Shown: positions 9,043 to 55,263, counted from the first letter of the stretch. The stretch: 64,000 bases of DNA from Chloroflexota bacterium (GCA_011523615.1 WTGJ01000027.1:452458-516457), one strand, 5' to 3'. The notes: generated from the letters alone by a model not told the origin. A program made the numbers and translations.

Positions 9043-9704
9043 GGATGCATTCGGCGATGAACGAAACGGATTTGGTCCTGCATGTAGATCAAGAGCATCG
9101 GGCTTTGCAAGCAGCGATCATCATTGGTTTTTTTCTCAGTGCATTGGTTTCCTATTGGATCATCCAGACGATCATCTCTTCCGCGGGGATCAATCTGATC
9201 GCCGCAGCTCTGGCATTGGTGATCGGTTTTTTGGTCTCAAAGGGGATGGAGGCTTGGCTCAAAGGAAGGTGGCGCAGTGGGCGGAGACTGTATCTGAGTG
9301 CAGATCGATTCTATACGCAAAAAGGACGGCGCACCGAACACGAAATCGATGCCAATGAAGATTTTGATCTATTGTTCTGGCGCTTTACGGTGAAGCGTGC
9401 GGGCCGCATCCCGAAAGGTTGGTACTTACTGAGCTGCGCTTTTCATCAAAGTGGGAATTACTTGCCGGTTTATTCGTTCATGTCTGCAGAAGAATTTGAC
9501 AACTTTCCCCAGTCGGAGCACTTTGTGGAACTCGCACCGAAGAAAAATATCGCTGCGGATGACAACTTCCAGCTGGTCGGTCTGCAGAAAAGACTGCACA
9601 CGGCAGAGGTTTTTCGTTGGAATGAAGGTGCGGAGCTGAGCAAAGATGATTTCCGCAGCTTCATGGCACGTTTGATGCAGCAGTTTCCAAGTAGGGGCAA
9701 TTGA
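9039..9704 (+). CDS. hypothetical membrane protein (two N-terminal TM helices plus a cytoplasmic domain)
   Basis: Good coding ORF that overlaps the upstream stop (TTGA); the in-frame ATGs at 9045 and 9057 are alternative starts. Hydrophobic segments AAIIIGFFLSALVSYWIIQTII and LIAAALALVIGFLV. No recognised domain. Confidence 0.5.
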   Translation: MRMHSAMNETDLVLHVDQEHRALQAAIIIGFFLSALVSYWIIQTIISSAGINLIAAALALVIGFLVSKGMEAWLKGRWRSGRRLYLSADRFYTQKGRRTEHEIDANEDFDLLFWRFTVKRAGRIPKGWYLLSCAFHQSGNYLPVYSFMSAEEFDNFPQSEHFVELAPKKNIAADDNFQLVGLQKRLHTAEVFRWNEGAELSKDDFRSFMARLMQQFPSRGN

Positions 9705-31617: not shown

Positions 31618-31641
31618 ATAAAAAAGGTGGGCAAACCCACC
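31618..31641 (-). terminator. rho-independent terminator after the giant membrane-protein operon
   Basis: The minus strand reads GGTGGG-TTTG-CCCACC followed by TTTTTTAT: a perfect 6-bp GC-rich stem, a 4-nt loop and a 6-T run. It lies 70 nt downstream of the stop at 31711. Confidence 0.8.
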
Positions 31642-31710: not shown

Positions 31711-34700
31711 TCATGAGTCCGGCGCGACGAGCGGGGATTGCGCATGGGGAGGGTATTGGTACATTTGCTTGGTTTCGTGATCGACGATCCAGACGTTGCC
31801 CCGTTGATCGACCGCCACATCGGTGACATTCTGGAAGTTTCCGGTTTGACCGATTTCAAATGGGCCTAGGCTGGTGAGGCAGTTCCCGGCCGCATCCAGA
31901 ATGACCACCCGCTTCTGGTGGGGGACACTCAGGTACACCAAGCTGCGCAGCGGGTCCACCGCAACCTGAGCCGCTACGCCAGCCCTTTGTCGCGAGAAAG
32001 GAAACGCAAAACTGCGCAAGAATTCTCCAGTGAGAGAAAAGACAGAAACGCGTTGATTCCACCATTCGGAAACATACAACTCATCGTTCAGGTCATCCAA
32101 TGCGATCGAACCCGGTTCTTCCAACTGACCCGGCAAACTGCCGCTTTCGCCGATATCCAGCAGATGATCGCCGGTTTCAGAATACACCCGGATGCGCTTG
32201 TTGCCCGTATCCGCGATGTACACATTCCCAGCGGAATCCACGACCAAATCCCTAGGACCCCAGAACCCACGCAGTGGCTCGAGAGGAGCATTGGCGCCGT
32301 AAGCGAAAGGTTCACCCCAGGCCTGTTGCACTGCACCAGTTTCATCGAGGCGAAGGAAGCGATAATTCCAGGTATCCGCAACGAGGATTTCACCCCCTGC
32401 TGCGAAAGCGACGCCATTCGGCCGGTTCAGTGTGAGATCAGTGGATGGTTGTTGGCTGAATGCGGGTGGATTGACCGCGGGGTCGATTTCACCAAAACGC
32501 CCAAGAGCAGCCAACAGCTGCCCGGTCTTGTCGTACCAACGGATCTGGTGGTTCATTTCATCGGCAATCAGGATACGATCGTTTTTCACCGCAAGCCCCG
32601 CCGGGTAGCCGAGTGACTCATCGGCCCATTGCAGGGTTCCTTGCGTTTCGGTCGTTTGGCTGGGGCAAGAGTTTTCGCCATTCGTTGATGGAGGGCTGAA
32701 AGAACCCACAGCGGCGGGTTCATAGAGCCAGATTTGTGATGCCAAATCGCGGCGCACATAGAGATACATGTGGTCGGCAGGATTCCAGTCTTGGATAGCG
32801 GAGGAAACCCCCTTTGCCTCGAAGTAACGGGCGTAATCACGTTCCCAGAAAATATCCAGCAAGCCCGAACGCAATTGAGGGGAATATGGATTGTCGGCAG
32901 AAAAGTCAAAGAGCTGGTTGATTCTCGCCGGAGTCAGGTAAAAATAATCTTGATTCGGCCACCATAGACGCAGGTATTTTTGCGTCGTGTAATCGAGTGA
33001 AAGAATATCGCCATATTGATGATGCAGATTGGCGCCAAGGAGCAACACATCTTCTTGCTGCAATGTGTTCAGATCCGGTTCCAGGCCATAGTAATTCGCG
33101 TTGGGAAAATCACGCAGGTACCATTCCATGGGCCAGGACACGCCTTCCCCGGCATACCCCATTCGTAGGTCTTTGCTGTTGGCACTGCGCTCACTGATCT
33201 CATGCAACAAATCCATCACGTATTTCACCTGCGGTGCCGCATGCGCATAGACTAAGAATTCTTTGGCGTAGTCATAATGGATGTAAGATGCGGAAAAAGC
33301 GGTGCGCATCGTCAGCGCGCAAAGGATGATCAGCAAACCCAGTTGACTGCTCTGCCGGATGATGAACCAGCCTTTTTGTTTGCCGATCCGGTAAAACAAA
33401 CCGAGAACCAATAGGGTAAACAAAACCGAACCGAACCACAGGGTGGTGTGCCGGATCTCCAGCGTCGTCAAGCCACGGAACGGCCCCGATCCGCGCAAGA
33501 TGGGGTTGACGGTCCGCCAAGCGCTCCAGGTCAACGCGGGCATCAAGAGCAAAGGCAACCACCCATAGGTCAGGATGGATTCCCAATCCAGCGTTTTCAG
33601 GAACGCGCCAAAGATAGAGGCCGACAACAGGATCAAAGGAAAGGCCAGGTGGATGCCCAACCACGGCATCTTCTCTCCGGCAAAGGTGTAACCATAAATG
33701 GCGAGAACAGCCCACCAGGCAAAGAGGGCCAACCAGGGGATGCCTTGCAGTTCTTGCGGAATCCGGTTCATTTTTTGGCGCAAACCGTTTCGCCAAAACC
33801 GACCGATTCCCATAACAGCAGCCAAAAAAGAACCGATGATCGGCAGGTATTCGTACAAAGGCAAGATGATGCCGCTGTAATAGTATTGCGGTTGAGAACC
33901 CCGCCTCACCCCTTGTTGGCCCAGCCAATATCCGAGGCTGCTCACAAAGCCAGAGCCCAGGCCGGCGATGTTGGTGAAGAAGGATGTGAATAAAATGACA
34001 TAGAGTCCCAGATAGATCGCTGCCAGTGTGAGCCAGAGTTTCGCTTCCCAGGCGAGACCGATGGCGATGGGGATGAGGAAAAAAGGCAGGACGGGCAGCA
34101 GAGATAACGCGATTTGCCAGAGCTGAGTGCCGCTGTGAAAGAGGAGTGTGGTTTCATCGTAACCGGGGAAATTCAGCGGTATGAGGATGCGAATGGATTC
34201 GACGGCGGATCGCGCAATATCCGCCAGTACTTGCGCATTGATTTCTTCACCGTACGTGAAGCTCGAACCCATGGCGGTGATCAATAAGGCAGATAGCCAG
34301 GGTATGGTGAATGTGACGATCAAGACCAGAACATCCCATTCGGGGAAAGAGCGCAGGGCCCGCCAAAATCCACGTTTTTTCAGCAAAAGGGCGCCGATTG
34401 CCACCACGATGGTCAGCACCCAGGCCAGGTAAAAGGGGATGAAATTCACGCGGTAGTTTTCGAGATGGCTTTCTGCGGAAGGCGCAATCTGCGGGATCGC
34501 TTCGAGCGAGCGGGATTCCAAAGCGACCAAAGCGGCGAAGACCAAGAAGGCCAAGACAGACAGGAGCGTGATTTCCCGCCAGGGTAAGGGGGTTCGGCGA
34601 TGCACGTAAATCGCGGGGCCGATGACCATCGCACTCACGCCCAGCCAGAGCAAACCACTCCAGAGCAGAAAACTCTGCACATTCGAACCCTCACTCCCGG

Positions 34701-35553
34701 AGGGCGAAGGATCTGGCGAAGGCAGCAGTCCCAACCCGGCCGTGATGGCCTGCCATCTTCCTGCCAAGGAGTCTGTCCCTTCGAAGGCGATGGCCAATAT
34801 CCCGGACATCACGATGGCAGCGAAAGTACCGATCAGGATGGCGAGGATGAGCAGCTGGAAGGTGCGCCTGAGTGGTATGTTCCAGGATTTCTGTATGACG
34901 CGAAAACAACCATAAAGGAACAGATACGAAGCGAAAATGCCGATGTAAATGAACGTATTTTCTTTCGAGGCAAAACAGAGCAGCAAACTGATCGCCGTAA
35001 TGTACAAGTAGCGATTGCGTTTTTGCTGCGGTTCATGCTCTTCCAGATAGCGCAGGATGGACCAGAGCAATATGACGGAATAGAAGAGCACCGGAGTGTC
35101 GTGCCGTATGTAGCGGTTGTAATACAGGGTGATGGGGGAGATCAGCAACAAGATGCTAGCGATGAGAGCCGTCTCTCGCCCCAACCACCTGCGGAACAAA
35201 AGGGGCGATAACACGAGCAGAATCCCTAGCACCGCGGGGTAAATCCGCGCGGTAAAATCATTGGCGCCCAATACTGCATACAGTAAGGCATTCACTTCAA
35301 ACAGCAGCGGCCCATGCATCAACGGCGTATGTTCGAAGTTTCCTTCTTGTTGGAACAGATATGAGAAATACGTATGCAGGCTTTCATCGTGACTCATCAC
35401 GCGAGCGTCCAGGATGTACAAACGAGTGAAAACCGCCGCCAGGAAAATCAGCACATACCAGGCAACTTCCCAATTGACGCTCAGATCACGGGAAAGCCAG
35501 GCCGGCAATAGGCCTTTGTCCACATCATTCCGGTGAGCTTCTGTGCCAGCCAA
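31711..35553 (-). CDS. giant polytopic membrane protein: TIGR03663-like (PMT/GT-C-like) N-terminal domain plus a C-terminal six-bladed NHL beta-propeller
   Basis: 1280 aa. The first loop has HDESLH (D56-E57) and LMHGPLLF (H80-G81-P82), followed by more than 15 hydrophobic helices. The last 300 aa contain six repeats of the NHL type (e.g. PRDLVVDSAGNVYIADTGNKRIRVY). TTG start; the exact start is uncertain. Confidence 0.75.
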   Translation of the reverse strand: MAGTEAHRNDVDKGLLPAWLSRDLSVNWEVAWYVLIFLAAVFTRLYILDARVMSHDESLHTYFSYLFQQEGNFEHTPLMHGPLLFEVNALLYAVLGANDFTARIYPAVLGILLVLSPLLFRRWLGRETALIASILLLISPITLYYNRYIRHDTPVLFYSVILLWSILRYLEEHEPQQKRNRYLYITAISLLLCFASKENTFIYIGIFASYLFLYGCFRVIQKSWNIPLRRTFQLLILAILIGTFAAIVMSGILAIAFEGTDSLAGRWQAITAGLGLLPSPDPSPSGSEGSNVQSFLLWSGLLWLGVSAMVIGPAIYVHRRTPLPWREITLLSVLAFLVFAALVALESRSLEAIPQIAPSAESHLENYRVNFIPFYLAWVLTIVVAIGALLLKKRGFWRALRSFPEWDVLVLIVTFTIPWLSALLITAMGSSFTYGEEINAQVLADIARSAVESIRILIPLNFPGYDETTLLFHSGTQLWQIALSLLPVLPFFLIPIAIGLAWEAKLWLTLAAIYLGLYVILFTSFFTNIAGLGSGFVSSLGYWLGQQGVRRGSQPQYYYSGIILPLYEYLPIIGSFLAAVMGIGRFWRNGLRQKMNRIPQELQGIPWLALFAWWAVLAIYGYTFAGEKMPWLGIHLAFPLILLSASIFGAFLKTLDWESILTYGWLPLLLMPALTWSAWRTVNPILRGSGPFRGLTTLEIRHTTLWFGSVLFTLLVLGLFYRIGKQKGWFIIRQSSQLGLLIILCALTMRTAFSASYIHYDYAKEFLVYAHAAPQVKYVMDLLHEISERSANSKDLRMGYAGEGVSWPMEWYLRDFPNANYYGLEPDLNTLQQEDVLLLGANLHHQYGDILSLDYTTQKYLRLWWPNQDYFYLTPARINQLFDFSADNPYSPQLRSGLLDIFWERDYARYFEAKGVSSAIQDWNPADHMYLYVRRDLASQIWLYEPAAVGSFSPPSTNGENSCPSQTTETQGTLQWADESLGYPAGLAVKNDRILIADEMNHQIRWYDKTGQLLAALGRFGEIDPAVNPPAFSQQPSTDLTLNRPNGVAFAAGGEILVADTWNYRFLRLDETGAVQQAWGEPFAYGANAPLEPLRGFWGPRDLVVDSAGNVYIADTGNKRIRVYSETGDHLLDIGESGSLPGQLEEPGSIALDDLNDELYVSEWWNQRVSVFSLTGEFLRSFAFPFSRQRAGVAAQVAVDPLRSLVYLSVPHQKRVVILDAAGNCLTSLGPFEIGQTGNFQNVTDVAVDQRGNVWIVDHETKQMYQYPPHAQSPLVAPDS

Positions 35554-35569
35554 CTTTATGCTACAGCGA

Positions 35570-37480
35570 TTAGGGATGGTTCACGGATTGATTCAACACA
35601 TCCCGATGCAGCCATAACACCATTGGGATGTACTCGAAAAAATGAGGGTCATTCATACCCTGGTTGTGATGGTCATTGAGCTGAGTCAAGAAATGCGCCC
35701 CGAGTGGTCGCGCTTGCTTCACGCGAGTGATCGAAAAAGGATGTCCGATGTAGGGAGCAGCCAGGCGTTCGCCAGCCTCTTCCGGGGCAATCGGGTCACT
35801 GATCACGAGGGGAAAACCCGCTGCGAGTTCGAGTTTGGGGAGCATCCTTACTTCGTCGAAATCACGCAACAACCATAGCATTGTGTGATATTGATCATCG
35901 CGAACCCCGGCTGCGGTTACCCAGGCGACGGATGAAGGTTGAGCCCAATTGCTTTGCTGAAGCAAATCTTGGAGCGTTTCATGCAGATGCGCATTCTGCA
36001 CGGTATTGAGTTGCGGCAGCCATGCGCTTCTGGCGCTTGCCTGATCGGCGGAAGCCACACGGATGCTGCTATGGGTCGTGTAGAGAAGCAGGAATATCGC
36101 CAATGTAGGCAGGAAGAAACTCCCAATGGATGAGTGTTTCGCAACGTACTGTAAAGCCAGCAAAACGACAAAATACAGGAGAAACCCGATCGCTATCCTC
36201 ATCAACCACCAAATGGCTGCCCCCGATGGTATGGATGGCGTGCCATGGAGCAAGCCCAACGCCGATTGCATGAAATCCGTTCGTACGATCAGGAAACGAA
36301 ACTGCAGACCGACCCACAACAGCAATCCGAGGGAAAGGGCATACAACATACCGCAGAAAGCAACATTGCCGGAGAACCCTCGCTGGTTGAGCGTTTGCAC
36401 GGCGCCCTGCCCTAGTCTGATCAAGCAATCTGCCACGATGAGGATCAATGGGATGCTGAGCCAACTCGCATGTGCCGGCTGGGAGCCCCGATCCAGCGTC
36501 AATAAGACGAGCAGTGCCACCAACCAGGCGAGCGAAAAGCGATTCAGTGGCGTCAGCTTCCTTTCACGCCGGAGCGTGATGAGGGCAACGACGGCGAGCA
36601 GCCAAAACCCCAGCTCATAAAACAGACTGACCCGCAGATCCTGCAAGAGATCACCCGGCTGGATCCAGCCGCTTAAGCTGGCAAGCAGCTGATTGCCGAC
36701 ATGATTCAAGCCACTCCATTGAGTGAGTAGCTGGGTGCTGAGCAGGATCACCGTGGCCAGACCGACCGCTAAGCTTTTGCGCCAGCGCCATTCTTGAAGG
36801 AGCTCCAGGAATCGACGCTTTATGGGTGCATTTTTTCTGAGCGTGAAGAATAAAGCGACCGATATGCTCACAAACAACAGGTAGCTGCGCCCATCTGTCA
36901 GGAACAAAGTGAGGAATGAAAACACTGTGAAGCAATGTTGCCAAGAGCGTCGTTGTCGCGATCGCGCTTCAGCCAACAGACATCGTTGCAGAGAAAGAAA
37001 AGTCAATGCACAGCCGATCAGTGCCCAGAGCGCACTCTCTGCATAACGCGATGAGAGGAGCACCAATGGCGAGAGGAGCAGCAAAATGCTCATGGTCCCG
37101 CAATGCTCCACCCGCATCCACTTGCTGAACAAAAAAGGAGAGAAGATCAAGCAAAGCCCCAACACGGCATTGGGGAATCGAAACCAGCCAATCTCGGGGC
37201 CGAACAGGGATAAGAGCATCTGATGGCTGGCATGAAGGAGTGGCGAAACACTGGAACCAGAAACGCTAGCCTCCACCGAATGTCCCACGAATGAAAGATC
37301 CATTGCCGAGACCACCGCCGGCAATTCGCGCGGCTGCAAGGGAATGACCGTAAGATGGGAGAATCGTGAAAAGATGGCAAAGCTCAACAAAACCAACCCG
37401 GCAAGAGACGAGAAACTGACTTTGAACCATATTTCGTCGGTCGTGTGCCTGACCATTCGCTGTGCGAAACTCGCCGTCAT
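35570..37480 (-). CDS. polytopic membrane protein, divergent TIGR03663-like paralogue lacking the DE / HGP motifs
   Basis: I prefer ATG at 37480 (MTASFAQRM..., 636 aa), which gives an ATGA start/stop overlap with the upstream gene. Its loop 1 aligns by eye with the 1280-aa protein (PRELP vs HDESL; PLLHAS vs PLMHGP; FRFPNAVLGLCLIFSPFLF vs ARIYPAVLGILLVLSPLLF). Confidence 0.65.
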   Translation of the reverse strand: MTASFAQRMVRHTTDEIWFKVSFSSLAGLVLLSFAIFSRFSHLTVIPLQPRELPAVVSAMDLSFVGHSVEASVSGSSVSPLLHASHQMLLSLFGPEIGWFRFPNAVLGLCLIFSPFLFSKWMRVEHCGTMSILLLLSPLVLLSSRYAESALWALIGCALTFLSLQRCLLAEARSRQRRSWQHCFTVFSFLTLFLTDGRSYLLFVSISVALFFTLRKNAPIKRRFLELLQEWRWRKSLAVGLATVILLSTQLLTQWSGLNHVGNQLLASLSGWIQPGDLLQDLRVSLFYELGFWLLAVVALITLRRERKLTPLNRFSLAWLVALLVLLTLDRGSQPAHASWLSIPLILIVADCLIRLGQGAVQTLNQRGFSGNVAFCGMLYALSLGLLLWVGLQFRFLIVRTDFMQSALGLLHGTPSIPSGAAIWWLMRIAIGFLLYFVVLLALQYVAKHSSIGSFFLPTLAIFLLLYTTHSSIRVASADQASARSAWLPQLNTVQNAHLHETLQDLLQQSNWAQPSSVAWVTAAGVRDDQYHTMLWLLRDFDEVRMLPKLELAAGFPLVISDPIAPEEAGERLAAPYIGHPFSITRVKQARPLGAHFLTQLNDHHNQGMNDPHFFEYIPMVLWLHRDVLNQSVNHP

Positions 37481-39924
37481 GGGTTTCGCTCCATCATGCC
37501 AAAACGTGTGGCATAAGCCAATGAACGGCCACTGGAATCTTCTTGAAGGCAAATGGGGATCAAATTCTCAGCGAATATCTCTTCCGCAGGCTGTCCGTAG
37601 ATGTATTGTTCGTGGCTGCCCCATATGATGTAGTCGATTTGGTAACGATCGATGATCTCTTGACGCAGCGGCCAATCGTCACTGCGATACAGGGCATCGA
37701 TATCCCGTGGGCGGAGGCCGACCGTATGTGGATAACTACCCCCACGCCATTGGTTTTGATGCGGCTCCCAGGCGATCACAGTGGGGATGCCGCTGATCGT
37801 GGCAATGCGCCCATAGTTCAGGTCATAGGAACGCCGTCCTCCTGGAGCCGGGATCCCTTCCGCAATGACCATCTCGCCAGCGGAGGCCATATCGGACAAA
37901 CATTGACTGAGTGCCCAATCGCTAGCGGAATAGGATGCATTTGCATTCCCCAGGGTAAGAGTTCGGTTTGGGCTTTCTTGCATTCGGCTGTGCATCCCCG
38001 CCGGTAGATACAGCGATCCCAAAATGATCACCAAAGAGAGCGTACCACCGATGACAATTCGCTGGCTAGGGTGATGCTGCAGCAAGTGGTAACTGGCGTA
38101 AGCTGCGGCCACCGCGAACAAGAGCCAGGCTTGGAAATAGAGTTTGAACACTGTGTTCATGCGGCTACCGAACAAGTCCCGTATGTAGATAAATTCTGGG
38201 ATGAGTATCAGGCTGATTCCGGCGATGGCGAGCAGTACGGTGAATGAAAGCGCCGGCTTCGACCTTCTCAACCGCAAGCTAAGCGTCGAAAGGATGAAAA
38301 AACTGGCAAACAAAAATACTTGGCTGAGTGAGTATTCCCATTGCATACGACGATGCAAGAAAGCAAGAATCCCATCCTGCAGACTCGCACCGGTTGTGAA
38401 TAGGTGTAGGGTGAGCGTCAAAGCACTCATCAGGAAGGCAACTGACACCGTCAGTGAAAGCCCGAACCGCCATTCGGGTGTGATCGACCATAATTTACGC
38501 CCCATCGCTAAAAAGAATACGGCATACAGGATGATGAACGGGGCGAACATCACCCACAGCTGCTGGATGCGCGTCGGGTGATCCAAGTTGGGCGCCAAAC
38601 CACCGGCTTGACTCCGAATGTGGAGCAACAGAGGCGCAGCAAACAGGAGGAGCCAGCACAGGGTTTGAGCGGCGAACTTCACTGAGTTTCGCCAATCCAC
38701 CGTGTTGCGGGAAACCTCTGCACCCATTCTCCGCAAACGCAACGCCTCTGCCGCCAACAGCAACACAAAAAAGACAGGGGCATCCCAGGCATTGGTACAC
38801 AGCACAGCCCCCAAGACCATCCCATAGACACAGATATCTCGGAATTGAGGTGGTCTCGGATGGGAGAAACGGTGCCAGGCGAAAGTGATCATGAGCGCGA
38901 TGAGCGGTATGCCATATACATGTGGATGGTTATCCCCCAGGAGGAAACTGAAGGCCGGAAATTCATCGATCACTTCTCGATGGGTTTCCGGATTGCATTC
39001 CTGCTCATCCCCAGGTGTGCGATCGACGATGGTACGGGCGGCGGCAAACCACCACCAATATCCTTTGCCAGAACCTTCACAGCGGTCTTTGGCATCCATG
39101 AACTGGAGATAGCCCGGTGCCGCAATTCCTCGCTGATAGGGCAATTCAATGAACAGGTAATGGCCATTGCTGAGCCACAGGGCAAAAAACACGGTCAAGA
39201 GCGCGCCTGAGATACTTCGGTAGCGGTGCTTCGGCGCGGATTCTGGATCAGCACTGGAATCCGAATGACCGCGAATCAGATTGTAGCCCGTGCCAAAAAT
39301 GGTGATGCCGCTCAACGCGAGCCAGGAAGCGGAGCTAAGGTCAAAGGCAACCGCATTCGTCACGCCACTGAGCTTGGCCAGGGCGGCCGAAATCAGGTAG
39401 CCGAAATAGTAGTAACTGACGCTGTGACCACTCAGCCAGGCATCGTTGGGCGGAAATTGGGGCGATTGGTTGATGGCACTCAACAGCATGAGTTCCATGG
39501 GCTTTTCTGTCGATGCCAAGTCCTGAATGCGGGCGCGAAACAAAGACCACCCAACCAATAGGATGACGAAAAGCAATTCGCCACAGATGAAGGCAATTTT
39601 GTGTTCCTGCCACCATCTTTTCCAATCGGAAGCCGCCGTTCGACGATCAAAACGAGAAAAATAGAGACTTGCGCAGCACACCAGCAGCCAACAAAAGGCC
39701 AAACTACCGGCTGAGTTTTGCAAAAACCCTAAGCTCACCAACCACCAGAACAGCCCTACCACGGCGATCAACCCGAGAATTCGGCTGAGGAACATCCCTC
39801 GATCGGCCAAATGGCTCAGAAAGTTCCAGGTAAGTGGCAGCACTGCGACGCCAGCCATGCTCAACAGCAACCACCACCGCAGGACATAGCCACCGTCGCG
39901 CGCGAGCCAATCAAGGATGAGCAC
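37477..39924 (-). CDS. DUF2298 / TIGR03662 'Chlor_Arch_YYY' family membrane protein (single-domain form)
   Basis: 815 aa and highly hydrophobic. It has the SYYYFGY motif (YYY codons at 39406-39414), an ADRG motif after TM1, and a C-terminal ...IDYIIWGSHEQYIYG tail. It is clearly paralogous to the C-terminal half of the 1786-aa protein. GTG start 2 nt after the upstream stop. Confidence 0.75.
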   Translation of the reverse strand: MLILDWLARDGGYVLRWWLLLSMAGVAVLPLTWNFLSHLADRGMFLSRILGLIAVVGLFWWLVSLGFLQNSAGSLAFCWLLVCCASLYFSRFDRRTAASDWKRWWQEHKIAFICGELLFVILLVGWSLFRARIQDLASTEKPMELMLLSAINQSPQFPPNDAWLSGHSVSYYYFGYLISAALAKLSGVTNAVAFDLSSASWLALSGITIFGTGYNLIRGHSDSSADPESAPKHRYRSISGALLTVFFALWLSNGHYLFIELPYQRGIAAPGYLQFMDAKDRCEGSGKGYWWWFAAARTIVDRTPGDEQECNPETHREVIDEFPAFSFLLGDNHPHVYGIPLIALMITFAWHRFSHPRPPQFRDICVYGMVLGAVLCTNAWDAPVFFVLLLAAEALRLRRMGAEVSRNTVDWRNSVKFAAQTLCWLLLFAAPLLLHIRSQAGGLAPNLDHPTRIQQLWVMFAPFIILYAVFFLAMGRKLWSITPEWRFGLSLTVSVAFLMSALTLTLHLFTTGASLQDGILAFLHRRMQWEYSLSQVFLFASFFILSTLSLRLRRSKPALSFTVLLAIAGISLILIPEFIYIRDLFGSRMNTVFKLYFQAWLLFAVAAAYASYHLLQHHPSQRIVIGGTLSLVIILGSLYLPAGMHSRMQESPNRTLTLGNANASYSASDWALSQCLSDMASAGEMVIAEGIPAPGGRRSYDLNYGRIATISGIPTVIAWEPHQNQWRGGSYPHTVGLRPRDIDALYRSDDWPLRQEIIDRYQIDYIIWGSHEQYIYGQPAEEIFAENLIPICLQEDSSGRSLAYATRFGMMERNP

Positions 39925-39926
39925 GT

Positions 39927-42900
39927 TCAGCCATCTTGTACTTTGAGGATCCTGGCAAGTGCGGCAATTTCTTGGTCCCCCCTTTGGTAGGAGAAGGGAT
40001 ATTCAAAGACGATCTCCAGGAATTCCTGTTCGATCATCACCTCGAACTTCGTCAGCCCATCGACGAATCGCGCCGGATCACTTTCATCCTTTCGATCGTA
40101 CAGCGCATGCTCCAGTGTCCCCACAATGATGTATTGCACATCATAGGCCTGCAGGATTCTCCTGGCATCTTGGATATCAGGTGTCGTGTAGAAGGCGGTG
40201 ACGTTGGCCGCTCTTCGCTGGATCAACTCGCTCATGGGTGGAAAAGTTCGTTGCTGCTGTTGGTGGTATTGCCACCCGATCACACTGGGCAGACCCGTGA
40301 AAGACGAGATGCGGCCATTCCACTTGTACTCACTGCCATAGTTGCGCCCTTCGATGATGGTTGGCGCGCCACGGACATGACTCAGCAACCATTGAATGAT
40401 CTGATGGTCCGTTTCGAGCGGATAGTGAACATCGCCTTCCTGATGATGCGCATACCGCAGGAATTTCAGGCCATCCAGGGTCATGGGCGTTTCGGCTGCG
40501 AAACGCAATTCGGCACGGGCAAGAGTCGCCAAATATGGGTAAGAAGCGGTGATTGCGAACAATGCCGTGGCAACCACATACCAAATCAATCTGAACCATC
40601 GCCCCCACTTTTTTCGCACATTCCAGAGTATGGCGAAAGCGATGCCTCCAAACAGACTGAAGTATTGCCAGCTCATGAAATACAGTTTGAACACCGTGTT
40701 TTGCCGGCCGATATCTTGGCGGATGCGAATGAATTCAGGGATCAAAGTGAGGCCCAATGCGACCAGGACCATCCCAAGCACCATGCGAAGATCGTCCGAT
40801 TTTTCTAAGAAAAGTAAAAGGAGACCCCAAACAATCACTGGGATCAGGATCAACAAGATTTCCCGACCTTGAGCGGCCAGAAAGATCGTGACCAGAAGCA
40901 AACCCGCACCGCCCGAAAAGAGCAGTGCTTTCGTCCTCCTATCGAATCGTTTGAATTGCTGCCTGAAAGCATTTCGCTGGCGGTAGCTCATCCAGAAAAG
41001 CAGGCCGACGAGCAAAAAGAGGAAATGTCCCTGAATGCTGAGGTATGCGGTGATCGGGGTGAATGGTCCGCGCCAGAGCTCGATTGCGGTGGCCGTAGTG
41101 GCGAACCACGCTCGGAATGGGGCGGTGGCGAGGAGATTCACCGCCAAAAAAGAAGCCAGGATGATCAGCAACTCGATCACCGCTCTTCGATTGAAGATCA
41201 CCGATGATGCACGAAGCGCTCGCGTATGAGCACCTGAGTGTTTGCTTTCCTTGAGCTTTCGTTGCCACCAGGAAAACACCAGGGTGGCTGAACTGATGAG
41301 GGTGATGGGGATCCAATCCCAGCTGTTGGTCGCCCAGGTCAGGCCGGTCGCCACGGCCCAGGCGAAGCGCACACTCACTCGCAGCCAAAGACTTCGTTGA
41401 TCCTGCCCGATCGACAACAGCTCATACACTACAAAAGCCATGGACAACATCAGGATGGGAAGAGCCATCATATGGGCATGCAGATCGCCATACAGGAATG
41501 TAAAGAAGGGAAATTCCGTGATGGAGTGATCTTGTATGGAATGACTGATGACCCGAGTTGGGTTCCACATCCATTCATGACCCGCGACCGGAAGTTGGCT
41601 TCCTTGGAGCCAGGCTTCGAAACCAGCAAAGGTAGTGACCAGGAAATTGGCACTTTCATTCGGCAATACCGATGCGCCGATTTCATGGATCGCTTGGAGC
41701 CAGATGCGGAATGTTTCCAAGTTTCCCAGCAACAGCAACAGGGCCAGCGCCGCCAAACCGGCCCATTCGGGACGAAGGGTGAGGTTTTTCATCCTGGCAG
41801 CGACGTTGGTGGCAATGGTAAAAGCGGCGACTCCCGTCAGGGCAAACAGGGTGGGGATGATGAGATTGTAAGCGAGGGAAGGGATGACCCCGCTCAATAT
41901 AGTGGGGACGCCCACCAGTACGAAACCGAAATAGTAATAATTGATGTAGCTACCGGAATACCAGGGGTTAAGGGGTGGGAAGATTTCACTGCGCAGCACC
42001 CCATTGAGGTAGGCGCTATCCATCATCTTTTCACCGCCAAAAACAGGGTGCCACAAGTCCGGATTGCTGAGGCGGATGAGCAAGCAGAACAGGAAAAGTG
42101 CGAGGAAGAGCAGCTCGATCGCTGCCCATCGTTTCCAGTGTGTTTTGAGGTGGTTTGTGAAGTGCTCCTGTTGTTTCCAGAACAGGGCAATGCTGGCTGC
42201 CATAGCGAGGAGGAGCAAGGACCACAATCCGCGCTGATTCCAGATAGGCAACTGGGCGCTGGTGAGCAACCAGGCCGACCAACCGAGAAAAACCAGACCG
42301 ACAATTTTGGCCAATCCATAGCCACGATCGGCAAAGTTGGGAGAGGCGTGGAATAACGGGATCCAAGCAGCGAAACCGATGACAGTGATGGTGATCAACC
42401 AGGCAACGATGGCAAGGACTGGGTTGCGGTTGACCGAACGAGAGGCATCGAACGGATCGAAGCCTGTGGATCCTGCAGTCTGAATTGCCAACTGCTCCTG
42501 GGAATACCGCAACTGGCTGGGCACTTCATCCACTTCACGCGAAGAGGGTGAATGGTAATTCGCAACCTTCGCCGTACATTGCGTGGCCAGTGGGTGATTG
42601 GGGTCCAAGAATGGACAATCACCATAAATGGGAGATGCATGGATGGCGGCCAGCGATACCTTGTGCAGTTCGGCTTGCACTTGCCGGAGATCAAAGTCTG
42701 GTTTCTTTTGAAAAATGAAGACGGCGGGATGATCGTAGACATGAAAGGCTTCATCCGCTTCCCATTGATTGAGCCATGTGGGAGGGGGGTGCAGCGGTAG
42801 GCGCTGATCCAGAATCCTCAGGTTGCCCAATTGGAAGCCTTCGACAAACTGGGCTACCAGGTCGAAACCCAGTTTGCCTTGGAACAGCAGGTGATAGAAA

Positions 42901-45287
42901 TGGTTGCTCAGGGGGAAACGAGTCGGATTTCTCGCTTGGGAATCGTAGAAACGATTGCTGCTGATCGTCAAATAGTCAGAACGAGATAAGCCATTGACCA
43001 GGTTTTCGAGCTTGCGGTCATCATCTTCGGCGGCCATATTCATGTTGTACTGGAGCACCTGGTCCAGGTATGGCGCGCGGTACCAGCACGCGTCGGTCGT
43101 GGCTGGCGAGGCTGGCTGGCAGGATCGAACCGCACTGAGGCGATCATCCCAGGTGCCCTCGTCGCTGACCACAGAACCACCGATGAATAGATCCCCACCC
43201 TGTATCAGCAAGCGGATGTGATAAGCTTCCCCTTTTCTGAGTTGTATTTCATCTTTAACCGGAATTACGTAGGCACCCCCCAAAGGATGGTGTGTCGTCG
43301 CGAAGGGGTCGGATAGAGATGCATTGATGAGGAGCTTGCCCTGTGCGTCCCACAATTCCACCTGAAGGAGCAAGTCTTCCGCTCCTGCGCTGCGCCTGCC
43401 CAAATGTGGGAAATACAGATCCTGGATGATGCCATCCTGAGTGACGTGAAAAGTCGCTTCTGCTGCAATGCCGGCCGTGAGGAGGCTACTCCGCTGCAAT
43501 AAGAGTTGGTCGCCAGGCACATCCGCGCTGGATCGATTGGCCAGAGCGATGTTGATCAAAGGTATATCGAGCGGTTGTCCCTTCAGACGGATCGTCACAT
43601 CGGCAGGAATGTAGTCGTGGATCCATGCACTACCCTGGATCCGGGTTAAGGGTTGCCGATAGATATGATGGAACATCGCTGCCCAAAGGAAAGAGAGCAG
43701 TGGCAAAGCAAGCCAAAGATACGGAAGCACAATGCGGAGGAGTTGGTGTCGGTTTTGGCTCGTGCTGAGTCGGTGCCTCTCGAGCATCTCACAGAGAAAA
43801 CAGGCGGCGATCAGGGAGAGAGCGCCGTAAATGGGCAGGAAATAACGCATCGTCATCACCCAGGCGCCGCCCATCCAACCGAAGTAACCCAATACCCAGG
43901 CCAGCAGCAAAAGGTATTTAGCGCTTGCCGCATGGCCGCGAAGCCAGCGCAGGCTGAAATAGCCGATGCCCAGCAAAGCCGGGATGCCGGCACTCAATCC
44001 CAATCCCCAAAGCAAGATGTCTTTGAGGGGATAGAAGTAGGGCAATCGGCCGGCCCATTGCCAATTGGGCGGCCAGTCCAGGTTTCCACTCGCCATCGTG
44101 ATGGAGTGTTGGATATCGAGCAACCACCGCTCATTGAGACCCGAGATCAACCCTGGCCCATGGAAAGCATACGGGTTGAAGAGGCGGAAGAAAAACAAGG
44201 TGGCGAAGCAACAGATCAATAGGCCGACCACTTCTGGAAGATATGCAATTCCCCTCCTCCGCTGCTCCTTGACATTCAGATGGAGTATTCGGTAAATCCG
44301 CACGAGGAAAGCGATGGCGATGATGCCCAAGAGGGGAGCCAGGTTGATCCGGCTGGCCATGGCCGCTGCCGTGGCAAAACCGAAGCCCAAGGCCGCCAGC
44401 CCATTGCCGCCACGATATACGCGATGGGCAAACCACAATGCCAAAATGCAAAAGAAATTGGCGGCAGCATTCACGGTGGCGAAGTGCGAGAGTTGTATGG
44501 CTAAGGGAGAAAAGGCGTAGAATGCCGCAGCGAGCAAACCAGCGCGTTTGCCCTGAAGCTGCCGGCCCATCCGGTAGATGAAGAAGACGGACAGCACATC
44601 CAGTGTGGATGAGAGAAATCTGCCCGCGCTCGCAATTTCATCGTGCCAGAGAAACCCTCCAGTGGATCGGCCGCTCTCGTTCCATCCCAACCGGTGGAAC
44701 AAGGTATCGGCGGTTTCAGCCAGGGCACGGGTCAAAAAGAGAGGCAAGGGCCCGTAGGCGAAGTTGGTGCTGCCGGCATTGTGCGGATTCAACGGGGAAC
44801 AGCGGGTATCGAAGTAGCGACCCACGCCGGCCGAATGAGGATATTTTTCGAGGCAATGAGCGGCCTGTTCTGTAAATGAAATTGCTTCTGCTTGCCGATG
44901 ATCGGTGGTGAAAGACAAAATCGTGCAGTCGTCGGCCAGCGCGCCGTTGATTCGATATTGCTGCAAACACTGCTGCGATCGTTGATGAATCGCTTCCCTG
45001 TCTTCCCTTCTGATATCCGCATCGAACCGGAGGCGGGTCATCAAATCGACCAAATAGCGTTCATCCGGATGCAGCAAGGAACCTTGATCCCAGTTGTGAC
45101 CGGTGAAGCGCAGGAATATGGCAAGGAATAGAATCAGCAAGAACAACGAGTGGCAGTGGAGAAACGGACGCCAACGTTTCCAACTGATGAGGGATGAAAT
45201 TCCGTTGGGTAGAGAAAATGGGTTGATTTTCCGAATGTGGGCCACTGTTTTTCCAGTTGACTCGTACACCCATTGAAGCTTACGCAA
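39927..45287 (-). CDS. giant fusion membrane protein: GT-C/TIGR03663-like N-terminal domain, central soluble domain, and C-terminal DUF2298 / Chlor_Arch_YYY domain
   Basis: 1786 aa. The first loop has HPDERY (D75-E76, nt 45060-45065) and FAYGPLPLF (aa 176-184), separated by a ~80-aa insert with 4 Cys. A beta-rich central region follows. A second TM block has ADRG and NYYYFGF (YYY codons at 41931-41939) and the C-terminal ...VQYIIVGTLEHALYD. TTG start. Confidence 0.75.
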   Translation of the reverse strand: MRKLQWVYESTGKTVAHIRKINPFSLPNGISSLISWKRWRPFLHCHSLFLLILFLAIFLRFTGHNWDQGSLLHPDERYLVDLMTRLRFDADIRREDREAIHQRSQQCLQQYRINGALADDCTILSFTTDHRQAEAISFTEQAAHCLEKYPHSAGVGRYFDTRCSPLNPHNAGSTNFAYGPLPLFLTRALAETADTLFHRLGWNESGRSTGGFLWHDEIASAGRFLSSTLDVLSVFFIYRMGRQLQGKRAGLLAAAFYAFSPLAIQLSHFATVNAAANFFCILALWFAHRVYRGGNGLAALGFGFATAAAMASRINLAPLLGIIAIAFLVRIYRILHLNVKEQRRRGIAYLPEVVGLLICCFATLFFFRLFNPYAFHGPGLISGLNERWLLDIQHSITMASGNLDWPPNWQWAGRLPYFYPLKDILLWGLGLSAGIPALLGIGYFSLRWLRGHAASAKYLLLLAWVLGYFGWMGGAWVMTMRYFLPIYGALSLIAACFLCEMLERHRLSTSQNRHQLLRIVLPYLWLALPLLSFLWAAMFHHIYRQPLTRIQGSAWIHDYIPADVTIRLKGQPLDIPLINIALANRSSADVPGDQLLLQRSSLLTAGIAAEATFHVTQDGIIQDLYFPHLGRRSAGAEDLLLQVELWDAQGKLLINASLSDPFATTHHPLGGAYVIPVKDEIQLRKGEAYHIRLLIQGGDLFIGGSVVSDEGTWDDRLSAVRSCQPASPATTDACWYRAPYLDQVLQYNMNMAAEDDDRKLENLVNGLSRSDYLTISSNRFYDSQARNPTRFPLSNHFYHLLFQGKLGFDLVAQFVEGFQLGNLRILDQRLPLHPPPTWLNQWEADEAFHVYDHPAVFIFQKKPDFDLRQVQAELHKVSLAAIHASPIYGDCPFLDPNHPLATQCTAKVANYHSPSSREVDEVPSQLRYSQEQLAIQTAGSTGFDPFDASRSVNRNPVLAIVAWLITITVIGFAAWIPLFHASPNFADRGYGLAKIVGLVFLGWSAWLLTSAQLPIWNQRGLWSLLLLAMAASIALFWKQQEHFTNHLKTHWKRWAAIELLFLALFLFCLLIRLSNPDLWHPVFGGEKMMDSAYLNGVLRSEIFPPLNPWYSGSYINYYYFGFVLVGVPTILSGVIPSLAYNLIIPTLFALTGVAAFTIATNVAARMKNLTLRPEWAGLAALALLLLLGNLETFRIWLQAIHEIGASVLPNESANFLVTTFAGFEAWLQGSQLPVAGHEWMWNPTRVISHSIQDHSITEFPFFTFLYGDLHAHMMALPILMLSMAFVVYELLSIGQDQRSLWLRVSVRFAWAVATGLTWATNSWDWIPITLISSATLVFSWWQRKLKESKHSGAHTRALRASSVIFNRRAVIELLIILASFLAVNLLATAPFRAWFATTATAIELWRGPFTPITAYLSIQGHFLFLLVGLLFWMSYRQRNAFRQQFKRFDRRTKALLFSGGAGLLLVTIFLAAQGREILLILIPVIVWGLLLLFLEKSDDLRMVLGMVLVALGLTLIPEFIRIRQDIGRQNTVFKLYFMSWQYFSLFGGIAFAILWNVRKKWGRWFRLIWYVVATALFAITASYPYLATLARAELRFAAETPMTLDGLKFLRYAHHQEGDVHYPLETDHQIIQWLLSHVRGAPTIIEGRNYGSEYKWNGRISSFTGLPSVIGWQYHQQQQRTFPPMSELIQRRAANVTAFYTTPDIQDARRILQAYDVQYIIVGTLEHALYDRKDESDPARFVDGLTKFEVMIEQEFLEIVFEYPFSYQRGDQEIAALARILKVQDG

Positions 45288-45373: not shown

Positions 45374-45402
45374 TTGACAGTCAATGGGGTGGAGATTAAA
45401 TT
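45374..45402 (+). promoter_or_regulatory. sigma70-type promoter for tRNA-Gly (and possibly rplY)
   Basis: TTGACA (45374-45379), 17-nt spacer, TAAATT (45397-45402). The predicted start site falls within a few nt of the mature tRNA 5' end at 45412. Confidence 0.55.
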
Positions 45403-45411
45403 AGCGGGGGT

Positions 45412-45483
45412 GCGGGTGTAGCTCAGGGGTAGAGCACTTGCTTCCCAAGCAAGGTGTCACGGGTTCGAATCCCGTTACCCGCT
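45412..45483 (+). tRNA. tRNA-Gly (anticodon CCC)
   Basis: Hand-folded cloverleaf. Acceptor GCGGGTG/TACCCGC (one G-U), D stem GCTC/GAGC, anticodon stem CTTGC/GCAAG, loop TTCCCAA, T arm ACGGG-TTCGAAT-CCCGT. CCA is not encoded. Confidence 0.9.
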
Positions 45484-45529: not shown

Positions 45530-46192
45530 GTGGCACAAAGCTTCACATTGGAGACGGAACCCCGCCTGATCACAGGCAAGAAGGTCAAACGATTGCGCCA
45601 GGATCACATCGTTCCTTTGAATGTGTATGGCAACCACATCCAGGCACAGAATTTGCAAGCGGATTATCGGCAACTGGAAGTGGTATTGCTGAATGCGGGT
45701 GGAACCAACTTGATTGAACTGCAACTCCAGGGAAAACCCATCAATGTATTGGCCCGCGAAGTGCAGCGAGATCCGCTCAAAGGGACGATCGAACACGTAG
45801 ATTTTTACGCAGTCGATATGGAATCCAGGGTGACTCTGGATGTGCCCATCGTGTTCGAGAATGAGAGCCCGGCCGTGACCACTCAGGACGGCTTGCTGGT
45901 CGTCGGTCCCAATTCCTTGAGCATCGAAACATTACCCAGCCAATTGCCGGACCAAATCTCAATCGATTTGGCAGAACTGTTGAATATCGGTGATTCCATT
46001 TCTGTGAGAGACCTGGAATTGGATGAAGTGATCACCATTTTGAACAATCCGGACGAGACGCTTGTCTCCGTCATCCAGCCGGCGGCGGCCAGAGGTGAAG
46101 AGGAAGAGGAACTCGAAGACGCTGAATTGCTGGCGGAAGGCGAGGATGAAGTTGCGGAAGATGGTGACGCTGAGGAAGAAGAGTCGATTTAG
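45530..46192 (+). CDS. rplY: 50S ribosomal protein L25 / general stress protein Ctc form
   Basis: 220 aa. GKKVKRLRQDHIVPLNVYG...NVLAREVQRDPLKGTIEHVDFYAV is the L25/Ctc signature, with an acidic C-terminal tail. GTG start with GGGAG 7 nt upstream. Confidence 0.88.
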   Translation: MAQSFTLETEPRLITGKKVKRLRQDHIVPLNVYGNHIQAQNLQADYRQLEVVLLNAGGTNLIELQLQGKPINVLAREVQRDPLKGTIEHVDFYAVDMESRVTLDVPIVFENESPAVTTQDGLLVVGPNSLSIETLPSQLPDQISIDLAELLNIGDSISVRDLELDEVITILNNPDETLVSVIQPAAARGEEEEELEDAELLAEGEDEVAEDGDAEEEESI

Positions 46193-48741: not shown

Positions 48742-49995
48742 CTATGGTCCGTCTGAGATCATATGCCAGTCGTCGCCGATGATTTCGAACTGAAATTCAG
48801 CGGCAGATGAGTCGGATTCGGGCGGCTGCAGCCAGGCATGGATGCGGATCTTCCCCTTTTCCTCGGTCACTTGCAGAGTTGCGATCTTTCCCACAAATTC
48901 AGGCTCATACTGCCTGATTTTCCATTCCAAGTAATCGCGCCAATCCAGCAGCGCGAGTTCGGCCAGACTCGACTGGGTTGCTTTACGCAATGCCGGTAGG
49001 AGCTTCAAACCGCCAAAATCATTCACTGCAGAAGCGATGGGATGCACTCCATATCGTTCGATCACGCTATCCAACAAGGGGCTGATTTCCTTGATGCCCA
49101 GGAAACGGGTCACGAGCCAAGAATACAATGCTTGCCGGAAGTAACGGTCATCCATAGAGCTGCTTTCTATGGTCGCCATCGGGCTGGTCAGGAACAATTG
49201 TGTACTCACCAGCTCGGCTAAAGACTGCTGCAAGCGGGGTGAAAACGGTTGATCGCTTCGCATGCGACTCAGGAGCGGGGAAGGGATTCGCATATGCCAG
49301 GGATTTATGGGGTGCCAGCTCAATGTCAAGTTGGGATCGGCTATGATTTCCACCAGCATTCCGGGTTGTTGTGTGCAAGAAAGCACCTGGCACCCCAGTT
49401 CCATCCAGCCAGGCAAAGTTTGGGCCAGCGCTTCTGCCAACAAAGCATCGCGCGAAGCATGTCTGATTTCTACGAAGTTGCTGGCGATGGTTGCTGCTTC
49501 TCCCCAGAGCCCCGTATTCTGCGGTAAATGGCGCCAGCCCGCTTCTTCAAATGACCAATAGAACCAGAGCCGTTCATAAGGGATGCCGTCTTCCACTTCT
49601 CGAAAATGGATGATACCCAGGTCGCCATTCTCACTGATTTCGCTGTCGATGATCTCCCCGATGAGGTTGAGATGGGGCGATGCTTGCACCTCATGAAAGT
49701 ATGCTACTTGCTGATTCACCCATATCTCATCTCCCTGATGCTGCAGCGCAAGAAAGGCATCCAGATCGCCGATCCGCAATGCTGCCAATTCGGCATTGAA
49801 TGCATCCTGCAGCGTGCGCAACTGCCAGCGCTCGATCTCAGCCAAACGCAGGATGATGGCAATTGCAATACCTGCGATCAAGAAGACAACAACGAAGACG
49901 ATCCGCCACCAGCGATTGAACCGCTGCGGACTGGGTTGCGGATCGCCGCCATTCGCTGGTTGAGCGCCGCTCTCCCACTCGAGTTCAACCGGCAT
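48742..49995 (-). CDS. hypothetical single-pass membrane protein
   Basis: 417 aa. One TM helix ([21 protein letters not shown]) followed by a large soluble domain. No recognised motifs. Confidence 0.5.
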
Positions 49996-55139: not shown

Positions 55140-55263
55140 AATGATGAGCGGGAAAGAGCCTTTTACCGCTGGCTGCGTGGCAGAAATTACTGAGTCCCTC
55201 GATAAGATGTACAGGAGTTCAAGCAGCTGCCCAGGTCAGGTTCTGCATCAAACATTCCTTAAA

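Follow-up and report, generated by a model that had tools for sequence, protein, structure and literature searches.

A 64,000-nucleotide stretch of the genome of a Chloroflexota bacterium of the class Anaerolineae (GCA_011523615.1 WTGJ01000027.1:452458-516457; hereafter the window, with positions counted from its first letter) carries four consecutive minus-strand genes, here called g1 to g4, that encode very large membrane proteins (Table 1). All four products are predicted to contain glycosyltransferase-C (GT-C) folds, with two of them in g1; the assignment is based on structural models for g2 and g3 and on Pfam PMT_2 or PMT matches for the N-terminal module of g1 and for g4. Three of the modules (g1 N-module, g3, and g4 N-module) are PMT_2/Agl23/ArnT-like, and two (g1 C-module and g2) are of the DUF2298/YYY type. 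We favor, with somewhat better than even confidence, the interpretation that g1–g4 form a conserved unit whose five GT-C modules make an envelope glycoconjugate on the outer side of the membrane from polyprenyl-phosphate-linked donors. The gene set is conserved across the class, and it is probably a core factory for a cell-surface glycan or glycoprotein. An earlier model-based reading of the DNA (the original prediction) had proposed glycosylation or polymer assembly by GT-C proteins with lipid-linked donors, and this proposal is supported as far as computation allows.

Public metagenome-assembled genomes (MAGs) already annotate such genes as DUF2298 or TIGR03663 proteins, and the component families are already catalogued. 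New here are the breadth of the conserved cluster, the fusion of two GT-C modules in g1, the placement of the g3 family, for which no curated model exists, as an ArnT-like branch within PMT_2, and, as a confident prediction from structural modeling, the GT-C fold of DUF2298.

Gene layout of the g1–g4 cluster

The four open reading frames (ORFs) and their three junctions were confirmed by ORF listing and translation as originally described. A gap of 2 nucleotides (39925-39926) separates g1 from g2, g2 and g3 overlap by 4 nucleotides in an ATGA start/stop (37477-37480), and 16 nucleotides (35554-35569) lie between g3 and g4. This spacing suggests translational coupling, and the four genes are probably co-transcribed. 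They are genuine genes and not chance ORFs, because hidden Markov model (HMM) E-values reach 1e-142 and orthologues occur in many genomes. BLASTP among the four proteins revealed two paralogue pairs, g1 C-module with g2 (26–27% identity, E 1e-19 and 2e-15) and g3 with the N-terminus of g4 (26% identity over 201 amino acids, E 1.8e-11).

The ATG start of g3 is backed by a database protein of 636 amino acids that is 100% identical. The start of g1 is uncertain; its closest orthologue begins about 25 codons further in. Low expression had been read into the non-ATG starts of three genes, which is unsupported: orthologues use ATG at the same positions (where g2 has its GTG, the orthologue with 79% identity has an ATG), and the g1 start itself is uncertain.

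Table 1. Genes, protein modules and hairpin of the cluster (aa, amino acids; nt, nucleotides)
Feature	Position	Strand	Description	Basis
g1	39927-45287	-	1786 aa, TTG start	ORF listing and translation
g1 N-module	43668-45287	-	aa 1-540; PMT_2-like GT-C; invariant HPDE motif	
g1 middle domain	42438-43655	-	aa 545-950; soluble, conserved	
g1 C-module	39927-42419	-	aa 957-1786; DUF2298/Chlor_Arch_YYY, paralogue of g2	
g2	37477-39924	-	815 aa, GTG start	ORF listing and translation
g3	35570-37480	-	636 aa, ATG start; longest ORF 660 aa from TTG at 37552	
g4	31711-35553	-	1280 aa, TTG start	ORF listing and translation
g4 N-module	33175-35553	-	aa 1-793; Agl23/TIGR03663-type GT-C with ~280-aa insertion	
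g4 linker	32629-33174	-	aa 794-975; aromatic-rich, soluble; no family; recovered in orthologues by its own HMM	
g4 NHL-repeat beta-propeller	31711-32628 (including stop codon)	-	aa 976-1280; three repeats	Pfam NHL, E 2.6e-29
Terminator-like hairpin	31620-31641	-	GGTGGG-TTTG-CCCACC stem at 31641-31626, then T6; 69 nt past the g4 stop	

Modules and predicted folds of the four proteins

The g2 protein is a stand-alone DUF2298/Chlor_Arch_YYY protein with a C-terminal soluble domain, scoring 300 bits on DUF2298 (cut-off 27.8) and 381.3 bits on TIGR03662 (cut-off 300.25). The C-terminal module of g1 scores 331.1 bits on DUF2298 (amino acids 1001-1541) and 475.6 bits on TIGR03662 (amino acids 957-1734) at the same cut-offs. 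The TIGRFAMs description of TIGR03662 calls for YYYxG within 700–900 residues of strongly hydrophobic sequence, as a whole protein or as a domain, and both g1 and g2 fit this description. The YYYFG motifs lie at amino acids 1117-1121 of g1 (YYY at 1117-1119, codons 41931-41939) and 171-175 of g2 (YYY codons 39406-39414), and both proteins contain ADRG (amino acids 986-989 and 40-43, respectively), in agreement with the original prediction. The shared C-terminal motif that it described is also real, with the spacing YII(V/W)G..E...Y in place of the E..Y given there.

DUF2298 is a large family (at least about 2400 cluster representatives at E ≤ 1e-10). In an alignment of 98 sequences, 62 columns are invariant. 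In g2 numbering, these include D41 (of ADRG), E116, T139-E140, D161, S170-Y171-Y172, G175, R297, E321-F322-P323, D331, H333-P334-H335, N378, W380-D381, R396, D583, R588, N590, and K594. A further invariant motif, W719-x2-H722-x2-Q725-W726-R727-G728, is found toward the C-terminus, and the pair C675/C792 is invariant in the C-terminal domain, which fits an extracytoplasmic location of this domain. In g1, the ADRG aspartate (D987) is kept in 52 of 56 orthologues.

The AlphaFold2 model of g2, built from the 98-sequence alignment, has a predicted local distance difference test (pLDDT) score of 91.6 and a predicted template modeling score (pTM) of 0.94, and about 16 membrane helices were counted from its secondary structure. 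Sequence searches of the Protein Data Bank (PDB) with g2 gave nothing meaningful, and the DUF2298 profile gave only chance-level matches to triosephosphate isomerase. When the model was compared with the PDB using Foldseek, ranks 1–8 were all GT-C proteins (E 2.8e-5 to 7e-3, probability ≥ 0.99), and the probability dropped to ≤ 0.25 past rank 8. The matches include DPY19 (7zlh, E 2.8e-5), human STT3A (8pn9_A), mycobacterial AftA (8if8, TM-score up to 0.50), and PglB (6gxc). Like STT3, PglB, AglB, and DPY19, g2 combines a polytopic N-terminal part with a soluble C-terminal domain that bears an invariant aromatic motif, and the structural probability is 0.99–1.00. Unlike these enzymes, it shows only 8–12% identity and TM-scores of 0.25–0.40 to them, has about 16 membrane helices by our count instead of 13, and has no WWDYG motif, its own motif being W-x2-H-x2-QWRG. 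No STT3 Pfam match was found in any of g1–g4; archaeo_STT3 reached just 16–22 bits (cut-off 450), on N-terminal fragments of g4 and g1.

In g1, a DUF2298/TIGR03662 module is preceded by a PMT_2-like module and an intervening domain of about 400 amino acids without a known family. Pfam PMT_2 matches the N-terminal module at amino acids 221-329 (E 1.7e-11), and TIGR03663 matches it weakly (18.7–20.5 bits, below the cut-off of 126.25). Its signature residues are DE (D75 E76) and YGP (Y178 G179 P180); D75, E76, and G179 are kept in 56 of 56 orthologues and Y178 in 54 of 56. The middle domain has no Pfam or PDB profile match, and a Pfam scan of 42 members of this domain gave scattered matches, none better than E 0.01. 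It is conserved: E710, D714, K759, R790, E846, and Y851 are invariant in the numbering of the window's g1 (G75, E166, D170, K215, R242, R246, E302, and Y307 in the numbering of the domain), a near-invariant DHP follows these positions, and the family consensus contains two Cys residues. The middle domain is probably extracytoplasmic. Since g1 fuses a PMT_2-like with a DUF2298 module, the two module types can be argued to work together. For a single natural polypeptide to join two unlike GT-C modules is unusual, and this architecture could be useful for structural work.

The g3 protein has no Pfam match and scores 25.0 bits on TIGR03663, below the cut-off. An exhaustive profile search collected a family of proteins of about 620–670 amino acids, with 98 representatives at E ≤ 1e-30. 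PMT_2 matches 37 of 60 scanned members (best E 1.2e-10), so g3 is a divergent PMT_2-superfamily protein that falls under the detection threshold. PDB sequence and profile searches with the family gave nothing meaningful. The AlphaFold2 model (92-sequence alignment) has a pLDDT of 89.5 and a pTM of 0.91, and its best Foldseek match is ArnT (5ezm, E 2.1e-8, TM-score 0.52/0.59), followed by ALG12, AglB, Pmt4, EmbB, ALG9, and PglB. Ranks 1–16 are all GT-C-fold proteins with a probability of ≥ 0.92, and the next rank has ≤ 0.2. Thus g2 and g3, the two proteins that lacked a GT-C assignment from sequence, both have significant PDB matches that are all of the GT-C fold, in line with the original expectation. 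The g3 model resembles ArnT (GT83) in its C-terminal alpha/beta domain and in its first external loop, where two juxtamembrane helices follow an acidic residue that is invariant. The setting is different, since a Chloroflexota bacterium is not expected to have a lipid A pathway.

A loop with DE and (H/Y)GP had been attributed to three of the proteins. It is present in two, g1 and g4; g3 has R51-E52 (PRE) in place of DE and lacks (H/Y)GP. The invariant residues of the g3 family are E52, R101, P344, W536, Y577, and G579. E52 is present in all 92 aligned sequences and, in the model, is placed directly ahead of the first juxtamembrane helix in the first external loop, which would be the canonical catalytic position of GT-C enzymes. 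For these reasons, we did not adopt the view that g3 is a dead enzyme in which DE has become RE.

A broader form of this doubt is that the folds are GT-C-like and the proteins have another role, for example as pseudo-enzymes, as parts of a polymer exporter or ligase, or as subunits that serve as scaffolds or carriers. PIGU (7w72_U), a subunit of the glycosylphosphatidylinositol transamidase that has a GT-C fold and is not a transferase, is among the g3 matches; of the DE pair, g3 retains only the Glu, and the catalytic residue of DUF2298 could not be placed. We nonetheless regard such a role as improbable, as the many invariant polar loop residues in all five modules suggest chemistry, not scaffolding, and the GT4 and PMT_2 genes that accompany the cluster in relatives fit a glycan pathway.

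The g4 protein is the sole one of the four filed as a member of TIGR03663, with 222.4 bits against the cut-off of 126.25, and it also matches PMT_2 (E 1.4e-9) and PMT (E 7.6e-7; 29.4 bits, amino acids 81-240). The family profiles thus came out as the original prediction expected, with DUF2298 and TIGR03662 on g1 and g2 and TIGR03663 on g4 above their cut-offs, and with PMT_2 or PMT on g1 and g4. Positions 4-185 of TIGR03663 (profile length 435) correspond to g4 amino acids 33-219 and positions 204-409 to amino acids 502-793; the insertion between the two blocks is rich in hydrophobic residues, with roughly six extra segments. The hallmarks of TIGR03663 in its TIGRFAMs description, an invariant N-terminal DE, HGP, and two Arg residues, are present: g4 keeps H55 D56 E57, H80 G81 P82, R44, R51, and R103, each in ≥ 95% of 35 orthologues. 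An acidic residue after the first transmembrane helix is invariant or nearly so in g1 (D75-E76, 56/56), g3 (E52, 92/92), and g4 (D56-E57, ≥ 95%). In the linker of g4, W807, P808, W811, Y812, W864, W865, and P866 are conserved, and the PDB sequence matches of the propeller are the NHL propellers of TRIM71, TRIM2/3, and PknD. A homologue with 98% identity to g4 is labeled "TIGR03663 family protein [Anaerolineaceae bacterium]". Like the PMT/PMT_2 (GT39-like) proteins, g1 and g4 match PMT_2 or PMT and keep DE; unlike PMTs, g3 has the Glu alone, no Pfam match, and no MIR domain. Neither MIR nor PMT_4TMC was matched by g4 in Pfam, so it does not have the architecture of a PMT O-mannosyltransferase (GT39).

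The original prediction described TIGR03663 as a family of unknown function, which is out of date. Its current NCBIfam name is "flippase activity-associated protein Agl23", and Agl23 of Haloarcula hispanica has been described as a putative hexose-P-dolichol flippase for N- and O-glycan synthesis (PMC11182771, citing Lu et al. 2020). The H. hispanica protein rescues a yeast rft1 deletion and, once purified, translocates M5GN2-PP-Dol in a liposome assay (PMC11182771). Together with the score of g4 and with the fusion in g1, which sets one such module beside a DUF2298 module, these data would be compatible with a division of labor in which only the DUF2298 modules transfer, while sugars or glycans linked to polyprenyl phosphate are translocated or scrambled by g4, g3, and the N-module of g1. 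We consider this rather unlikely. The fold of g3 is nearest to a genuine transferase, ArnT, and three translocator modules per two transferases would be unusual; moreover, g4 and g1 keep the strict DE dipeptide, which is catalytic in PMT-type transferases.

The nature of the acceptor bears on another alternative, a protein glycosylation system, in which DUF2298 proteins would be oligosaccharyl- or glycosyltransferases acting on secreted or envelope proteins, the PMT_2/Agl23-like modules would be protein O-glycosyltransferases or donor suppliers, and the NHL propeller would bind the protein substrate. NHL propellers usually bind proteins, several of the best structural matches of DUF2298 (DPY19, STT3A, and PglB) modify proteins, g4 is above the cut-off for the PMT protein O-mannosyltransferase family, and Agl23 has been described in archaeal N- and O-glycosylation (PMC11182771). 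On the other hand, AftA, whose acceptor is a polysaccharide, matches DUF2298 as well or better (TM-score 0.50), and ArnT, the best match of g3, acts on a lipid acceptor. DUF2298 also lacks both the STT3 Pfam match and WWDYG, and no candidate substrate gene is present in the cluster. Dedicated protein glycosylation is possible but, in our view, doubtful, and the wider interpretation as an envelope glycoconjugate system is retained.

Conservation and genomic setting of the cluster

A scan of GTDB species genomes confirmed at least 594 relatives among 600 candidates; the best 80 loci were analyzed, and their ORFs were classified by HMM. These 80 loci span Anaerolineae, Aggregatilineales, Caldilineales, Thermoflexus, and Phototrophicaceae, and all are labeled Chloroflexota except for one Nitrosomonadaceae MAG and one Pleurocapsa MAG. 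Denominators are loci with enough flanking sequence; the counts for g1, g3, and g4 refer to the 80 GTDB loci only, and those for the other five features also include six further loci (L001-L006). Of 68 loci, 58 have a g3-type gene directly downstream of the g2 orthologue; a g1-type fusion is directly upstream in 46 of 56, and a g4-type gene is downstream in 30 of 54. Several of the apparent misses among all these features are frame-split genes. The order g1-g2-g3 is held from 79% to ~30% identity in dozens of Chloroflexota species, bearing out the original expectation of conserved synteny, and the longer order gyrA-rplY-g1-g2-g3-g4-nusA also occurs in the contigs with g2 orthologues of 79% and 46% identity.

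The description of the operon as consisting of nothing but such membrane proteins is true only in the lineage of the window; most relatives add a cytoplasmic GT4 glycosyltransferase, a methyltransferase, a PMT_2 protein, and an extracytoplasmic function (ECF) sigma/anti-sigma pair. Upstream of the g2 orthologue, GT4 is present in 38 of 54 loci, a methyltransferase in 26 of 54, and an extra PMT_2 protein in 41 of 54. At 35–39% identity, the upstream additions are LPG_synthase_TM, GT4, an S-adenosylmethionine-dependent methyltransferase, and a PMT_2 protein of ~830–880 amino acids. The GT4, methyltransferase, and extra PMT_2 genes fit a glycoconjugate pathway. Downstream, an ECF sigma gene is present in 26 and nusA in 23 of 59 loci. 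In many Anaerolineae (loci L004-L030, e.g. L005:14459-15557 and L007:14544-15622) and in the relatives at 35–39% identity, the ECF sigma gene and a zf-HC2 anti-sigma gene lie between the g3 and g4 orthologues; the pair is absent from the window's lineage. It fits an envelope function, and its insertion suggests that g4, or the cluster as a whole, is controlled by envelope stress.

The same comparison bears on whether the four genes are mere neighbors with independent functions and no common pathway. The g4-type gene is not adjacent in 24 of 54 loci, the ECF sigma/anti-sigma pair splits g3 from g4 in many genomes, and solitary DUF2298 paralogues occur (e.g. L032, L035, and L054). Against these stand the order g1-g2-g3 retained across the whole range of identity, the 2- and 16-nucleotide gaps and 4-nucleotide overlap that suggest translational coupling, and the fusion in g1 that ties the two module types. 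Mere proximity is disfavored and seems to us very improbable, and we continue to treat g1–g4 as a functional unit.

The cluster is flanked upstream by gyrA-rplY-tRNA-Gly(ccc) and downstream by nusA-infB-nrnA-like-truB-ribF. The single clean terminator originally described past g4 is present as a hairpin with T6, and it may have a second role. L001, the 79% relative, carries an identical hairpin, and L003 has one of similar structure. A promoter-like TTGACG-17-TAGTTT (~31682-31654, minus strand) precedes it, and an AGGTGAT Shine–Dalgarno sequence and the likely true ATG of nusA (~31602, MRSEFELAF) lie immediately 3' of it; L001 and L003 show these three elements in the same order. Besides or instead of terminating g4, the hairpin may attenuate nusA from its leader, which would fit NusA autoregulation.

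On the other side of the cluster, tRNA-Gly(ccc) (45412-45483, plus strand; sigma-70-like promoter TTGACA-17-TAAATT at 45374-45402) and rplY (L25/Ctc; 45530-46192, plus strand) lie divergently between g1 and gyrA. The space for a g1 promoter is only ~124 nucleotides, and a consensus scan of its minus strand gave no promoter-like site. A protein of 417 amino acids encoded upstream of gyrA (48742-49995, minus strand) has one hydrophobic segment and no Pfam or NCBIfam match, and its position is kept in L001 and L003 (414–416 amino acids).

Three further polytopic membrane proteins are encoded 6 kb upstream of the operon (51374-57507): a PMT_2 protein of 485 amino acids (51374-52831, plus strand; E 4.9e-7), an ORF of 779 amino acids (52800-55139, minus strand) with no Pfam match and a weak match to the LA_3751/LA_3752 putative glycosyltransferase family, and an ORF of 747 amino acids (55264-57507, minus strand) with no Pfam match and about 11 hydrophobic segments. 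The membrane ORFs at 52800-57507 were considered as the GT4, methyltransferase, and PMT_2 genes missing from the window's cluster and were rejected, as phmmer with the L005 proteins gave no match in the window at E ≤ 1e-6. Elsewhere in the window, three consecutive ORFs without a Pfam match at E ≤ 1e-4 (9039-9704, plus; 9701-11194, plus; 11191-12555, minus) adjoin genes for a response regulator, a DM13-domain protein, a CpXC protein, and a PAS histidine kinase.

Proposed mechanism and relation to known systems

Here, we propose how the five modules may act. By analogy with every characterized GT-C enzyme, they would reside in the cytoplasmic membrane, with active sites that probably face outward, and they may form a complex. 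The donors would be polyprenyl-phosphate-linked sugars made by enzymes encoded elsewhere in the genome, and sugar would be transferred to an acceptor at the outer face. Outside the cell, the acceptor may be held or selected by the middle domain of g1, the C-terminal domain of DUF2298, and the NHL propeller of g4. A further role of the Agl23-type modules may be to translocate the lipid-linked donor or hand it over, as reported for archaeal Agl23. The product would be a class-specific envelope glycoconjugate, either a wall or lipid-anchored glycan or a glycoprotein.

Agl23 is the closest family member, and the mycobacterial embCAB/Aft system is the closest analogue in organization. Like H. hispanica Agl23, g4 covers most of the TIGR03663 profile (positions 4-409 of 435) and keeps the DE, HGP, and Arg residues. 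TIGRFAMs notes that TIGR03663 co-occurs with TIGR03662/DUF2298, and the two are found together in this cluster. Unlike Agl23, g4 has 1280 amino acids, with the ~280-residue insertion, a linker of about 180 residues, and the NHL propeller; as a bacterial protein, it would have a bacterial polyprenol, not dolichol, as its lipid carrier; and the related modules g3 and g1 N-module remain under the TIGR03663 cut-off. The embCAB/Aft proteins (GT53/GT85) are very large GT-C enzymes encoded in tandem, with extracytoplasmic C-terminal domains, that use a polyprenyl-phosphate sugar donor to build a wall polysaccharide or lipoglycan, and EmbA and EmbB form a heterodimer. The g1–g4 genes are likewise very large GT-C genes in tandem, and AftA and EmbB are among their structural matches. 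Unlike embCAB/Aft, g1–g4 have no detectable sequence membership in those families and belong to DUF2298 and PMT_2/Agl23-like families, g1 fuses two GT-C modules, and an NHL propeller replaces the carbohydrate-binding modules.

Several observations weigh against the envelope glycoconjugate interpretation. The hhalign comparison of DUF2298 with the profile of the PMT_2-like g3 family detected no relation (probability 1.5%), so that the GT-C assignment of DUF2298 is based on predicted structure only, and the global TM-scores of g2 to GT-C structures are modest (0.33–0.50). With 16 helices and the positively charged loop at amino acids 92-108 inside, D41 of ADRG would be cytoplasmic. The same count would place the large conserved loops at amino acids 133-189, 251-333, and 579-588 outward, and, judged from sequence conservation, E140, D161, E321, and D331 are alternative acidic candidates for an external catalytic residue. 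The sole biochemistry in the Agl23 family is translocation of a lipid-linked glycan, not its transfer (PMC11182771). Neither a donor synthase, a sugar-nucleotide enzyme, a polyprenyl-phosphate-sugar synthase, nor an obvious acceptor gene was found in the 64-kb window, and g4 is outside the immediate neighborhood in the 24 loci mentioned above. Finally, a search of the literature on DUF2298/TIGR03662 and on GT-C proteins in Chloroflexota returned nothing on the function of any DUF2298 protein. The only substantive mention found is a gene-neighborhood table that places DUF2298 beside PMT_2 proteins in a Chloroflexi genome (PMC8756737); papers retrieved with "YYY domain" concern the unrelated Y_Y_Y domain and were set aside.

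The envelope glycoconjugate interpretation can be extended. DUF2298/YYY may be an unrecognized class of GT-C transferases, perhaps oligosaccharyltransferase-like, that forms an obligatory hetero-oligomer with Agl23-type modules, in which case g1–g4 would be a five-module machine that translocates lipid-linked glycans and transfers them into a class-defining envelope component. We offer this extension tentatively, as a possibility well short of even chances. If the extension is true, DUF2298/Agl23 pairing in Archaea would explain a missing transferase step after Agl23. DUF2298 is in any case a candidate partner for Agl23-type proteins, whose role as flippase or transferase in Archaea is still being worked out, and the predicted GT-C fold gives the family a testable biochemical hypothesis. 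Sediments, sludge, and soils harbor abundant Anaerolineae and related Chloroflexota, whose envelope chemistry is largely unknown; the conserved, nusA-adjacent cluster of five modules is a concrete genetic handle on that envelope.

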